Shown: positions 3,415 to 12,339, counted from the first letter of the stretch. The stretch is 45,612 nt of DNA from a virus (IMGVR_UViG_3300028805_001692:1-45612), one strand, 5' to 3'. Notes: generated by a model not told the origin, from the letters alone. A program made the numbers and translations.

Positions 3415-4278
3415 TTACACCCAATAAGGATGCAAACTCCCATCCTCATATACAACACCGAAATAATACTCCCTACCAAAGATACCCCTCGTAGCAGCCT
3501 TTAACATGTCAGCTAATGTTGCATGAACACACTTATTTACAAGGAAACAAGTCCTCTTTAGTGTGAACTTACCATCATACGAAGGCACGTATGGAGTAAT
3601 ATCAAACTCCGTCTTACAACCATGAGCAAATGGTGACTTTAGTTTCACACCAAATGTTTTCTCGAAAGAAACAAACATATCTGGTCTATCAAACAACTCA
3701 ACCAACTTAATGTTCTTGAAACCCATCTGGTTATAATGCTCAATACACTTACATATTTCCTCCTTATCACATAGATACGGCTTCATCATATTGATGTTCA
3801 TCGTAATCTTGCTCTTATCCTCAATGCTACGATAGAATCCCTGTCTATCAAACGTTGATTTATGACCACGAATTTCATCAGCTATTTCCTCGTTGTAGTG
3901 TTGTGGGGATATTGCCATACCATCACATTCATTGAGAATATTATAGAACGCATACTTATGTGTGTAACATTGCTCTGGAACTGATGTAATAACATATACC
4001 CTAAGATTGGTGGTAGACTTGACCTTTCTAATCAAATCAAGCACATCATCTATGAAAAGCATAGGTTCTCCACCACTAATGCAGATAGATGTAATCTTAG
4101 CCCTATTCTCGTATATTCTCGAAAATATGGCTCTGACATCTGGTCTCTTGACGGGAATATCAAGACCCTTATTCAATGCATCCACACAGAAAGGACATTT
4201 ATTAGGACACAGTTTAGTGAAATGAATCTGCAACTCATTCTCAATCTGGTCACACGTATTTACGTTATACTTAATCAT
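3415..4278 (-). CDS. Radical SAM protein, function unknown
   Basis: CPNKCPFC (CxxxCxxC) and ISGGEP motifs; no obvious SPASM extension. Confidence 0.85.
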   Translation of the reverse strand: MIKYNVNTCDQIENELQIHFTKLCPNKCPFCVDALNKGLDIPVKRPDVRAIFSRIYENRAKITSICISGGEPMLFIDDVLDLIRKVKSTTNLRVYVITSVPEQCYTHKYAFYNILNECDGMAISPQHYNEEIADEIRGHKSTFDRQGFYRSIEDKSKITMNINMMKPYLCDKEEICKCIEHYNQMGFKNIKLVELFDRPDMFVSFEKTFGVKLKSPFAHGCKTEFDITPYVPSYDGKFTLKRTCFLVNKCVHATLADMLKAATRGIFGREYYFGVVYEDGSLHPYWV

Positions 4279-9447: not shown

Positions 9448-9466
9448 AGCTGTATGATTTTGGTTG

Positions 9467-9508
9467 CAAAGATACACAAAAAAATCGAGATAACCAAATA
9501 TTATCTCG
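9467..9508 (-). terminator. Terminator closing the iscB-array transcript, fused to the next host-type promoter
   Basis: Inverted repeat CGAGATAA/TTATCTCG (9486-9508) plus U tract on the minus strand; -33 TTTG 9498-9495, -7 TATCTTTG 9474-9467. Confidence 0.8.
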
Positions 9509-9524
9509 GTTTTTAAAAAAAATT

Positions 9525-10259
9525 AACTAATAATGATACAATATACGTCTTGGATGAATTGAAATTTTGCCGATTTCGAGATACAAGTGTATAATGCTAC
9601 CGCATCAAAGAAAAGGACTGGCTGGAGTATCCTCAAAATTATATTGGTATGTGTGGGAAAGTTGGATTTTAAACAAAACTAATAGTGATACAATTCGGAT
9701 GTTGTCATCGTCATGAGTCCTAAAAGAAGGATAAGCTGGAAAAGTTATTTGACGAAGTAATATATTCCAAAACTAGTATCTAAGATTCACCCTCCTAAAA
9801 TAAATAGTAGGATTTTAAACAAAACTAATAGTGATACAATTTGCTGAGCGCACAGGTTCACTTGAAATCGGTATTAGTAAACAGTAGCTGTTCAACCGAA
9901 GCGAACCGCATAATAATAATAACTAATAATGATACAATGGCATACTGCTTCCGCATATCCGCCTCACTAAATAGATAGTAGACTTTTGAATAAAACTAAT
10001 AATGATACAATGCAGTCTTATACGAGTTAAAAGCTCACGCTAGGCGTGAGCATTAACATCAACACGTTGAATCCCAATGGGGTAGTAGGCTTTTGAACAA
10101 AACTAATAGTGATACAATTGACAGGTTTCAGAAGTTAATTCTATATTCTTCGTCATCGGTTCAGTCATACCCTTCAATATCCGTCTTCGCATCATTTGGT
10201 TCTGCCTTTCTTATAATATTGGTTCACCACATAATCATAGAAACTAATAATGATACAAC
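9525..10259 (-). CRISPR. Non-canonical CRISPR-like array: 7 repeats, long irregular spacers, associated with IscB
   Basis: 18-nt core ATTGTATCA(C/T)TATTAGTT (minus strand) at 9525-42, 9677-94, 9823-40, 9921-38, 9994-10011, 10101-18 and 10242-59 (last copy starts with G). Four copies extend to about 36 nt (...TTTT(G/A)TT(C/T)AAAA(G/T)(C/T)C(T/A)ACT). Core-to-core gaps 134, 128, 80, 55, 89, 123 nt, all unique. Confidence 0.85.
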
Positions 10260-10272
10260 CCTAATTTCCATC

Positions 10273-11547
10273 TTAATCATGAGTGAACTGAAGCAGATAA
10301 CTTCCATGCATCCTTCTTAAGAATCTCACATCAGAAGTTCTTACTGTAAATGGAGTCATTTTACCTTTTGCATTTGGCTTTCTTGTGACATAATTACCGT
10401 TAATATCCTTTAAGTACACTCTCCCATTTGAACTTCCACTAATAAAACACTTAATTCCGTTCCATAGAACAAGGTCTCTTTTCTGTAAACCACTATTACC
10501 TATCATATGGGAAGTTGTTTCAGCTTTACGTATACCTCCCTTTTGAGGAACTTGCCTATGTAAAGACCTAGTATGCCTTCTGTTAAGCTTATACTGGTAG
10601 AATCCACCAAGTCTGTCAGCCTCCAGGTTACCAGTCATGACAAATGCATCGCTAGTATGGGACTTCTCAATCCCACCCCTTAAGCGGTTAGCTTTGGTTA
10701 TGTAACCATACGTAGTATTAACATTGCCATATAGCTCTTTTACTTTCCAGAACACGGGTTTACCGATTGTCGATACTGATGTTTGGTTTTTGAAACTAGT
10801 AAGCTTTTTCACATTAAGTTCAAATTCACCATTATGTAGCTTCTTATGACAATCCTCACACAATGTGATAAGATTCCCAACCGCATCAGTACCGCCTTGT
10901 GACCTATATTGAATGTGGTGTACGTGAAGTGTTTCGCACCCACTTTCTCCGTGACAATGCTGGCACTCGTGTCTATCCCTAATTAAAACATACTCTCTGG
11001 CGTTTTCAAACCCAAACAATTCACCATGCTGGTACTCCTCACCTTGAATATCTGGATTCTGTAGTTTCTGAATATCAAACGGAGCAATTTCAATGGTTAT
11101 GTTAGAAACAGGCAGAATCTTATGGACACGCTGAATGGCTTTCATGTGTTCGTCAAACCTATTCCTTGATGTAGGGGTTAACCATCCATTTGGTCTTTTC
11201 CTATTATCAAAACGTGGTTTTCTGTACCTAGTCTTTCTGTTACGTCTAGTACTCCTAGATTCACGCCTAGAAAGTATAAGACCTGGAATCTCTTTACTGC
11301 GAAGTTCTACTTGAGCAGCATAAAGTTCTTTAGAAGATGTTGATGCAGATAAACCTATATACCTAGAACCAGTATCAACCCCCAGATTTATTTCTTGGAG
11401 GTTCTCGCCAGAAACATAGTCAAGCTGGATTGTAAAAGGAACGGTAGAAACCACGTGGGCTTTACCTTCCTTCAAAAGTCTCCTAACTTTTCCATGCCTT
11501 GTTGTTGGCATTATAGGCTTGCCATCCTTGTTTAATACGTAAACCAT
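10273..11547 (-). CDS. iscB: IscB RNA-guided endonuclease (OMEGA), 424 aa
   Basis: PLMP domain (MVYVLNKDGKPIMP); RuvC-I GVDTG; Arg-rich bridge helix; RuvC-II IEIAPFD; HNH with CxxC...HHI...NL..LC..CH; RuvC-III SHTSDA. Catalytic motifs appear intact. Confidence 0.92.
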   Translation of the reverse strand: MVYVLNKDGKPIMPTTRHGKVRRLLKEGKAHVVSTVPFTIQLDYVSGENLQEINLGVDTGSRYIGLSASTSSKELYAAQVELRSKEIPGLILSRRESRSTRRNRKTRYRKPRFDNRKRPNGWLTPTSRNRFDEHMKAIQRVHKILPVSNITIEIAPFDIQKLQNPDIQGEEYQHGELFGFENAREYVLIRDRHECQHCHGESGCETLHVHHIQYRSQGGTDAVGNLITLCEDCHKKLHNGEFELNVKKLTSFKNQTSVSTIGKPVFWKVKELYGNVNTTYGYITKANRLRGGIEKSHTSDAFVMTGNLEADRLGGFYQYKLNRRHTRSLHRQVPQKGGIRKAETTSHMIGNSGLQKRDLVLWNGIKCFISGSSNGRVYLKDINGNYVTRKPNAKGKMTPFTVRTSDVRFLRRMHGSYLLQFTHD

Positions 11548-11559
11548 TTGTTTAATTTT

Positions 11560-11750
11560 AAAAATGTTATAAACCGTCAAATAAATGACGTTGTGTACCC
11601 ATCGCTAATGTTGGTTGGAGGTTTTCACTAGAAAGACATTCTCGCTAGCCGCAGGGTTTGGGGCTTGGGTAACAACTCCAAAGTGCCTATATATTCTCCC
11701 TCAACGTAGTCCTCGAAGGACTTAAGCTAATCGTATCATATTAGTTTTGT
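11560..11750 (-). ncRNA. Guide-less omegaRNA scaffold with 5' anti-repeat (tracrRNA-like)
   Basis: Directly upstream of iscB, same strand. Omega-RNA-type elements: UUAGCUUAAG-(GUCCU UCG AGGAC)-UACGUU, AUAGGCAC-UUUGGAG...CCCAAGCCCCAAACC-CUGC, AACAUUAGCGAUGGG. The first 21 nt are complementary to the array repeat. 3' end approximate. Confidence 0.8.
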
Positions 11751-11754
11751 GGCG

Positions 11755-11796
11755 CAAAGATATATAAAAAAAACGAGATAACCAAAAGTTATCCCG
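11755..11796 (-). promoter_or_regulatory. Host-type promoter for scaffold-iscB-array, fused to the upstream terminator
   Basis: TTTG 11786-11783, N20, TATCTTTG 11762-11755; predicted TSS about 11748-11750; hairpin 11774-11796. Confidence 0.85.
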
Positions 11797-11817
11797 ATTA
11801 TTAATATTTTTTAACAA

Positions 11818-12276
11818 TTATTCCATCCACCAAGGTTTCAATAAAGCTACAGAATAATTTCCAATTTTTTTATAGACATAAAGAGTCCCAGCAAAATCAT
11901 CATTAAATTCTTCAATAATCATATTCTTCAATTTCCTAGTCCCACAATTACCGAAATATAATCCAGAAATATTTTCAGCAGTATCTGTTAATTCACATTT
12001 ATCACCATTCATGAAAAACCTTAATTCATCTAATTTCTTTTTCTTTTCGTTTTCATCTTGTGCATTTTGGTACTCTTGACGCATTGACTTCAAAGTAAGC
12101 CTATTATCATTCAACACGTCCCCTAACAAATCAGTGCTAATTATGTGCGAAAGACCATTATTTGTCTTGCGTATTTTAATAAGACCATTCTCTATAGCCC
12201 TTTCACATAAATCAACGTCAAACATAAGTTTATTAAAACCGTTTAACTCTTTAAAAAAATCAATATATTCACTCAT
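11818..12276 (-). CDS. Hypothetical AT-rich protein (start MSEYIDFF)
   Basis: First ATG after the promoter at 12295-12325. Confidence 0.6.
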   Translation of the reverse strand: MSEYIDFFKELNGFNKLMFDVDLCERAIENGLIKIRKTNNGLSHIISTDLLGDVLNDNRLTLKSMRQEYQNAQDENEKKKKLDELRFFMNGDKCELTDTAENISGLYFGNCGTRKLKNMIIEEFNDDFAGTLYVYKKIGNYSVALLKPWWME

Positions 12277-12294
12277 AACTCCTATTTTTTTTTG

Positions 12295-12339
12295 CAAAGA
12301 TATATAAAAAAATCGAGATTTCAAAATAAAATCCCGATT
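12295..12339 (-). promoter_or_regulatory. Host-type promoter fused to terminator hairpin
   Basis: TTTG 12325-12322, N19, TATCTTTG 12302-12295; hairpin 12311-12339. Confidence 0.8.

Follow-up and report, generated by a model that had tools for sequence, protein, structure and literature searches.

In the canonical IscB-omegaRNA system (Rfam RF02033; 7XHT, 7UTN; PMC9640706), a one-piece RNA carries one guide directly 5' of its first stem, and this stem, the guide adaptor hairpin, has been equated with the repeat:anti-repeat duplex of Cas9 (Kato et al. 2022, PMC9640706). CRISPR-associated IscBs with a repeat and an anti-repeat have also been published (Altae-Tran et al. 2021, Science 374:57, as related in the passages of PMC12660989, PMC9755519 and PMC9640706 that deal with that work), and such systems have been regarded as intermediate between OMEGA and type II CRISPR (PMC12660989). 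One of them is DelIscB (Zhang et al. 2025, PMC12660989), with an upstream array that forms one continuous ncRNA with the scaffold, processing into two RNAs being still open there. A comparable split is described for TranC in the part of PMC13565253 that concerns it: TranC nucleases are TnpB-to-Cas12 intermediates with a functionally split omegaRNA, standing between transposons and CRISPR. All in all, few intermediates are known for the passage from a one-piece transposon guide RNA to the two-piece, multi-guide crRNA:tracrRNA of Cas9.

The window, i.e. the whole 45,612-nt stretch of viral DNA analysed here, carries on its minus strand an iscB gene preceded by an omegaRNA scaffold, which opens with an anti-repeat, and followed by an irregular array of repeats complementary to that anti-repeat. 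We consider it probable that this locus encodes a natural split, crRNA:tracrRNA-like omegaRNA supplying several guides to one phage IscB, and it is best explained if a giant Bacteroidota phage has domesticated an IscB (OMEGA) module, which it carries in single copy. The locus shares with DelIscB and the other CRISPR-associated IscBs the repeats, the spacers and an anti-repeat leading into an omegaRNA-like scaffold, with a repeat:anti-repeat duplex replacing the guide adaptor hairpin. Unlike in DelIscB, the array sits behind the gene, 1.3-2.2 kb from the anti-repeat, the promoter abuts the anti-repeat, the spacing is irregular throughout the phage clade (36-154 nt start-to-start), the host genome is that of a giant phage, and no Cas1 is found even in a complete genome. 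Thus, repeat/anti-repeat IscBs are already known; what is new here is the array behind the gene, the irregular spacers and the promoter directly at the anti-repeat. Compared with the known examples, the gene is moreover a fixed one in a giant phage, and the duplex co-evolves fast beside a frozen scaffold.

The iscB gene (10273..11547, minus strand, ATG at 11547 and stop at 10273; assigned by Pfam and PDB alignment) encodes a protein of 424 aa with matches to Pfam RRXRR (4.9e-62) and HNH (1.5e-10). Its domains follow the order PLMP motif, RuvC-I, bridge helix, RuvC-II, HNH, RuvC-III and C-terminal domain, so that the protein has the RRXRR/PLMP N-terminus, the HNH within a split RuvC and the ~400-500 aa size of an IscB nuclease. 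Alignment to OgeuIscB (7XHT/7UTN; E ~6e-56, with PDB IscB chains at ~1e-56) shows acidic and histidine residues present at the catalytic-motif positions of RuvC-I, RuvC-II, HNH and RuvC-III. Across lineages, dN/dS is 0.07-0.09 at a dS of 0.6-1.8, indicating strong purifying selection on the gene.

The window is part of a virus record of 109.6 kb, 33% complete according to CheckV; because a sister record of 412 kb is rated 100% complete, we take the context to be a giant phage. Neither Cas1 nor a Y1 transposase (TnpA) was found in the window's record, in the complete 412-kb relative or in a third related record (G002), and each of the three has one iscB. The module therefore appears fixed, and not fed by canonical adaptation machinery of the searched records. 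Residence in an IS200/IS605-type mobile element does not describe it either, since it has no Y1 transposase, occurs in single copy and has the same neighbours in five lineages, a gp13-like and a TonB-plug gene. Nor is this a type II CRISPR-Cas locus, with a Cas9 bearing a REC lobe and cas1-cas2: the 424-aa protein is IscB-like. Between the gp13-like gene and the IscB module, the window also holds a 168-aa ORF (11818-12324, minus strand) without a convincing Pfam match; no gene is called at its position in the sister loci L115-L118, L121 and L122.

Directly upstream of the iscB ORF, the Rfam HEARO model (RF02033) matches 11782-11590 with 56 bits (E 4.8e-10), a sub-threshold match (gathering cut-off 83), as would be expected when about a quarter of the model, its first part, is lacking. 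The alignment is confident from model position ~45 to 211, and in it the anti-repeat (11730..11750, minus strand; ACAAAACUAAUAUGAUACGAU) aligns to the 3' strand of stem 1, that is, of the guide adaptor stem. Model positions 1 to ~50, which comprise the 5' strand and two small loop hairpins, are forced with low posterior probability onto the terminator lying upstream, and we therefore regard these elements as absent. A match of this kind, to an omegaRNA covariance model and with no credible 5' strand, is what the sequence-only reading had predicted. The scaffolds of two sister lineages (L001 and L002) likewise give HEARO matches upstream of the ORF that stay below the gathering score. The scaffold body extends over 11575..11729 and contains the central stems, the two pseudoknot halves of the model (11727-11723 and 11608-11604) and a terminal hairpin (11590-11575). 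These halves replace the GCUU/AAGC pseudoknot suggested at first: HEARO instead pairs GCUUA with UUAGC. The locus thus resembles canonical IscB-omegaRNA in protein family, domain order, scaffold body, pseudoknot and central stems, and in that a guide is expected directly 5' of stem 1. It differs in that the scaffold gene lacks the 5' strand of stem 1 and the loop hairpins, the strand being supplied by separate repeats; in the length of the stem, 17-22 bp here as against about 7-14 bp; in offering several guides in place of one; and in showing neither a transposase nor another sign of mobility.

The anti-repeat (11750-11730, minus strand) pairs in RNAduplex with seven of seven downstream repeats, giving a scaffold with, on its 5' side, an anti-repeat complementary to the repeat of an array, as in CRISPR-associated IscBs. 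The three full copies form 21 pairs with one bulged base (-21.4 to -21.9 kcal/mol) and the shorter copies 16-19 pairs (-15.4 to -17.8 kcal/mol), while shuffled anti-repeats reach a mean of only -4.9 kcal/mol (sd 1.6) against an observed -19.0. The sequence-only reading had counted 20 Watson-Crick pairs, one G-U and one unpaired base, and for the three fullest copies this count is borne out; the unpaired base is indeed the position that varies between C and U (three C and four U among the seven copies), and the A-to-G change at the start of the 10259 copy keeps its pairing as a G-U. In a fold of the scaffold by itself, the anti-repeat stays unpaired (mean pairing probability 0.2). Cofolding, which had been put forward as a check, yields a gain of 23.7 kcal/mol for a guide-repeat unit with the scaffold.

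TAnnTTTG is the consensus of the Bacteroides -7 promoter element. A box of this Bacteroidota type, TATCTTTG, lies at 11755..11762 (minus strand), separated from the anti-repeat by the four bases CGCC; the box is invariant in five of five lineages, and the short gap after it is conserved. It is preceded at 11766..11797 (minus strand) by the intrinsic terminator of the upstream gene, a hairpin with a run of 8 U read from the sequence, whose loop includes a TTTG ~20 nt ahead of the -7 box, a candidate -33 element. The combination of a U-run and TA(tc/ac)TTTG recurs at 16 sites in the 109.6-kb record, where 2.5 are expected, and most of the other copies stand 4-25 nt before an ATG, implying very short or absent leaders. 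In one copy TTTGCGCC runs directly into ATG, in the same context in which, at the anti-repeat, TTTGCGCC runs into ACAAAAC, and it is this identity that places the putative transcription start at or next to A11750. From the -7 consensus, the conserved box and gap, the genome-wide context of the cassette and the terminator directly upstream, we infer that transcription would begin there. The earlier claim that no room is left for a cis guide is accordingly upheld as a prediction from the promoter consensus, strengthened by the conserved box and spacing and by the position of the cassette near start codons elsewhere.

The same terminator-promoter cassette brackets the IscB module, at 11754-11820 and 9466-9532 of the window (repeat family D3). 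At the far end, an intrinsic terminator read from the sequence (9478..9509, minus strand) closes the unit of scaffold, iscB and array, and the next TATCTTTG box lies beyond it at 9474-9467 (minus strand). Within the array, TAnnTTTG boxes number zero in three sister lineages, one in L121 and four in the window, where three fall inside repeats. Promoters borne by the repeats themselves were considered, as TAGUUUUG in three window repeats fits TAnnTTTG, and were rejected: the match is not conserved, the sisters having TAGUUUUU instead. Since the array has no conserved boxes and starts 13-55 nt past the iscB stop codon across lineages, it is most simply co-transcribed with iscB, and so probably belongs to one transcript with the scaffold and the gene.

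An ordinary single omegaRNA, with its guide and the 5' strand of stem 1 in cis, is not seen at this locus, as terminator and promoter occupy the upstream site. Such an RNA might still start further upstream and contain a 5' strand and guide that had gone unrecognised, and two sister loci, L001 and the recombinant L123, give this idea a footing: they have one or two repeat copies ahead of the terminator-promoter cassette (L123:380-480, L001:2683-2700), 117-150 nt before the anti-repeat. There too, the terminator and promoter intervene between the upstream copy and the anti-repeat, and the 130 nt upstream of the anti-repeat contain no complementary strand in the window, L002, L121 or L115 (cis duplex -4 to -7 kcal/mol). 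We hold this reading to be extremely improbable. Because of the upstream repeats in L001 and L123, the layout is not strictly one of an array downstream only; they may be relics of an ancestral cis arrangement or a second small array.

Beyond the clade, relatives at 39-56% IscB identity carry a complete cis stem 1. Viral loci at 39-46% protein identity give full-model HEARO matches of 78-140 bits with GUCAAC...GUUGA(U/C) paired, a cis stem 1 can be seen by eye in dozens of metagenomic and bacterial loci at 40-53% identity, and the nearest outgroups, at 52-56% in a search of 5.8 billion proteins, carry a short one (in L214, for example, GUUCCGC...GCGGAGC). An automated cis-versus-trans scoring of ~55 loci was noisy for GC-rich stems and served as a rough check only. 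As more distant relatives keep the cis stem, the missing 5' strand is a derived feature of one small clade. The split itself would be obligatory, because the promoter stands at the break, and since the nearest relatives have cis omegaRNAs, sequence comparison suggests that it likely arose independently of that in other IscBs.

The array comprises seven copies of the repeat core where 0.01 are expected, all on the minus strand. Repeat 1 (10238..10259; GUUGUAUCAUUAUUAGUUUC), of the short type and 13 nt past the iscB stop codon, pairs at -17.2 kcal/mol. Repeat 2 (10097..10118) has the full 22-nt pairing with C at the bulge (-21.9 kcal/mol) and a conserved 3' extension reaching ~10083. Repeat 3 (9990..10011), preceded by unit 10075-10012, which resembles a host element, has U at the bulge, as does the short-type Repeat 4 (9921..9938); Repeats 5 (9819..9840) and 6 (9673..9694) are full, with C at the bulge; and Repeat 7 (9525..9542) is a terminal truncated copy with the terminator directly after it. 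The first bases of the repeats (10259, 10118, 10011, 9938, 9840, 9694 and 9542) are spaced by about 140, 107, 73, 98, 146 and 152 nt (range 72-154), and the gaps between the 36-nt repeats measure ~36-118 nt. The fixed spacer length of a regular CRISPR array is therefore absent, here as well as in the relatives, where repeats follow one another at 36-126 nt start-to-start.

This bears on the question of whether we are dealing with an ordinary CRISPR-associated IscB and a genuine CRISPR array, serviced by a Cas1-Cas2 module of the host or by an unseen one of the phage. CRISPR-associated IscBs with repeat and anti-repeat are known (PMC12660989), and L002 and L123 differ by one whole unit, in the manner of CRISPR arrays. 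The extra unit of L123 is internal, though, and not at the leader end; spacings of 72-154 nt in the window and 36-126 nt in the relatives are far from the fixed length produced by Cas1-Cas2; several repeat copies retain just the 17-22-nt pairing part; and none of the three searched phage records, the complete 412-kb one included, has Cas1. On this balance, we judge a genuine CRISPR array very unlikely.

Evidence that the predicted duplex matters in nature comes from sister loci. Only five protein clusters at 90% identity fall within 79-100% of the window IscB, the next cluster in the 5.8-billion-protein search being at 56%. The sister DNA compared comprised L002 and L035 (90%), L001 (82%), L121 and L122 (82%), L115-L120 (79%) and the recombinant L123; the sister records are metagenomic, one of the L115 lineage being labelled bovine metagenome. 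All five lineages have the layout terminator, TATCTTTG, 4-6 nt, anti-repeat, scaffold, iscB, 3-10 irregular repeats and terminator, and in five of five a truncated last repeat is followed by UUAGUUAA.

Repeat and anti-repeat differ between the five lineages in sequence and in length, and match within each. In the window lineage, the repeat AUUGUAUCA(Y)UAUUAGUUUUGU faces the anti-repeat already given; the corresponding repeat and anti-repeat are AUUGUAUCAGAUUAGUU and AACUAAUCUGGUAUGAU in the L002 lineage, AUUGUACUAGAUUAGUU and GACUAAUUUAGUACGAU in the L001 lineage, AUUGUGUUG(U/A)UUAGUUU and AAACUAAACAACAUGAU in the L121 lineage, and AUUGUGUGAUUAGUUUCU and AGAAACUAAUCACAUGAU in the L115 lineage. 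Some of the changes are double compensatory substitutions (UC:GA to CU:AG) and others alter the length of both partners in step, the partners lying 1.3-2.2 kb apart. At helix position 10, the bulge of the window is replaced by G-C in L002, by G-U in L001 and by U-A or an A-A mismatch in L121. All repeats tested across the five lineages pair with the anti-repeat (33 of 33), and in a 5x5 cross test the lineage's own anti-repeat was always the best, with cognate duplexes at -17.5 to -20.9 kcal/mol versus -4.8 to -16.8 for non-cognate ones. In L123 the anti-repeat and upstream repeats are of the L001 type but the downstream array is of the L002 type, and between these downstream repeats and its anti-repeat there is one C-A mismatch, counted by hand. 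The crRNA:tracrRNA-like topology proposed in the sequence-only reading thus finds support in co-variation across five lineages, matched length changes included.

This variation is sharply confined. In an alignment of the five upstream regions, the sole hypervariable block is the 17-21 nt between the invariant -7 box and the near-invariant scaffold. Over 150 nt, the scaffold is 94-98% identical in four lineages, and the fifth differs by little beyond a 1-nt insertion; a few compensatory changes occur in its stems, and it stays near-invariant while synonymous sites of iscB are saturated. The pattern of co-variation and selection is strong evidence, drawn from sequence comparison, for a duplex that does form and is under selection, and for a nuclease in use. 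It also weighs against taking the repeats as inert relics, left by repeated insertion or duplication of a transposon left end beside a decaying omegaRNA. In IscB transposons the boundary between guide and scaffold is the transposon end, so that tandem end fragments could accumulate, and some of the repeat copies are indeed truncated. Yet decay would have to be reconciled with co-variation, matched changes in length included, across five lineages already saturated at synonymous sites, with the near-invariance of the scaffold, and with a locus that is single-copy, syntenic and without TnpA; we find such an origin scarcely credible.

For the split omegaRNA that we favour, the following course of events can be proposed. 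The omegaRNA would be split at the loop of the guide adaptor hairpin. One host-type promoter would initiate at, or a few bases from, the anti-repeat and, because transcription starts there, the scaffold transcript would contain neither a guide nor the 5' strand of stem 1; it would span scaffold, iscB and repeat array up to the terminator. In each array unit, a guide of ~16 nt (16-17 nt by analogy) would lie directly 5' of the repeat, and the repeat would be the missing 5' strand of stem 1, restoring the hairpin by pairing with the anti-repeat over 17-22 bp, between molecules (or at long range). Any of 3-10 guides could thereby be loaded onto one IscB scaffold, much as Cas9 uses crRNA:tracrRNA. 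As the spacers are long and irregular, a trimming step would be required, perhaps cleavage of the duplex by host RNase III and then 5' trimming, by analogy with Cas9; such processing would tolerate variable spacer lengths. Here we infer guide length, spacer trimming and DNA cleavage by IscB. With type II CRISPR-Cas9, the proposed system would have in common that the guide precedes the repeat, that a structured trans-acting RNA begins with the anti-repeat and that the duplex contains a bulge or mismatch. It differs in its 424-aa IscB without REC lobe, in that no cas1, cas2 or csn2 was found, in the unfixed spacer length and in the position of the scaffold within the 5' UTR of the nuclease gene. 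As in TranC, one transposon guide RNA would be divided into tracrRNA-like and crRNA-like parts; unlike here, the TranC nuclease is of the TnpB/Cas12 family and the guide is at the 3' end.

We then looked for targets of the putative guides. Nothing above chance was found for the window array in the INPHARED phage collection (E up to 10) or in the full records of four related phages, the complete 412-kb genome among them; for the L115 and L121 arrays in INPHARED (E up to 1); or for the window and L115 arrays in 400 Prevotellaceae genomes each. Guide 3, searched with up to 2 mismatches in the same 400 Prevotellaceae genomes, gave counts equal to those of a reversed-pattern control. Forty putative guides (30 nt each), compared with the window's own 109.6-kb genome and the loci retrieved from the relatives, returned self-matches and 14-16-nt chance matches only. 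In IMG/VR, five 20-mers had 0 matches and one 18-mer had 3, which we ascribe to chance because their flanks are unrelated.

That no target was found for any putative guide, together with the probable presence of anti-repeat and repeats on one primary transcript, would suit a purely regulatory pairing, in which repeats in the 3' UTR bind the 5' end of their own transcript, affect iscB mRNA stability or translation or titrate the scaffold, and deliver no guides. Against such regulation, the anti-repeat lies exactly at the 3' strand of the guide adaptor stem in the family fold. A scaffold without a guide-bringing strand would moreover give IscB no guide, yet strong purifying selection acts on this nuclease, in which the catalytic residues are intact. 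Finally, unit content is wholly different between lineages while the repeats are retained, which fits guides and not a fixed regulatory site. Regulation without guide delivery is therefore very unlikely in our estimate.

Two of the array units offer a lead to their origin. Units 3 (10075-10012) and 7 (9612-9543) show similarity to a structured element, ~180 nt long, of which Prevotellaceae genomes contain 1-8 copies each (local alignment z 10.6 for unit 3 and 7.3 for unit 7, with the other four units below 0). Copies of this element include L186:1425-1615 and L183:1440-1640 (minus strand); the two copies read adjoin a lipoprotein gene, on its upstream side. The element has no match in Rfam and folds into a long hairpin (fold z -6.6), and compensatory changes are seen when its copies are compared. 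In units 3 and 7 the resemblance reaches as far as the first bases of the phage repeat (ATTGT versus ATGGT, ATTG versus GTTG). From these resemblances, units may have been captured from such host-type DNA by short-microhomology recombination, and the host or host-borne DNA may be the target; as identity between unit and element is 75-83% and no exact protospacer was seen, capture and targeting are to be taken as a lead only. A bolder extension, tentative and on present evidence rather doubtful, is that a phage-borne OMEGA system has independently become CRISPR-like without Cas1-Cas2, gaining new guide units through recombination at the short AUUG(U) with which the repeat begins. Should that be true, the phage may aim its IscB at host DNA or at rival elements, and the fast co-evolution of repeat and anti-repeat may stop guides from being cross-loaded between co-infecting sister phages.

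Judged from its sequences, the clade would be a natural and apparently working intermediate, with a clean split and a promoter exactly at the break, and its guide store is not an array made by Cas1. The five sister lineages constitute a ready-made compensatory-mutation series for the duplex. Here a giant phage keeps, as a fixed gene, a programmable nuclease with its 3-10 guides, and one may ask what the phage targets with it; a 424-aa IscB taking separate short guides on a constant scaffold, as proposed, would be of interest for multiplexed editing. More such loci may exist, because they would probably escape standard CRISPR-array finders, which depend on regularly spaced repeats.

Two further observations concern the arrays. 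In L119, whose IscB protein is identical to that of L115, the sequence at 1608-1960 turns into unrelated sequence right after the first repeat, which points either to a variant genome that has lost the array or to a chimeric assembly. And a short motif (UAUUAGAUUUCUG-like) recurs 3' of several repeats (L002:4340-4365; L121:4005-4020 and 4160-4180), where the window carries a different conserved 3' repeat extension (UUCAAAAGCCUACUA-like).
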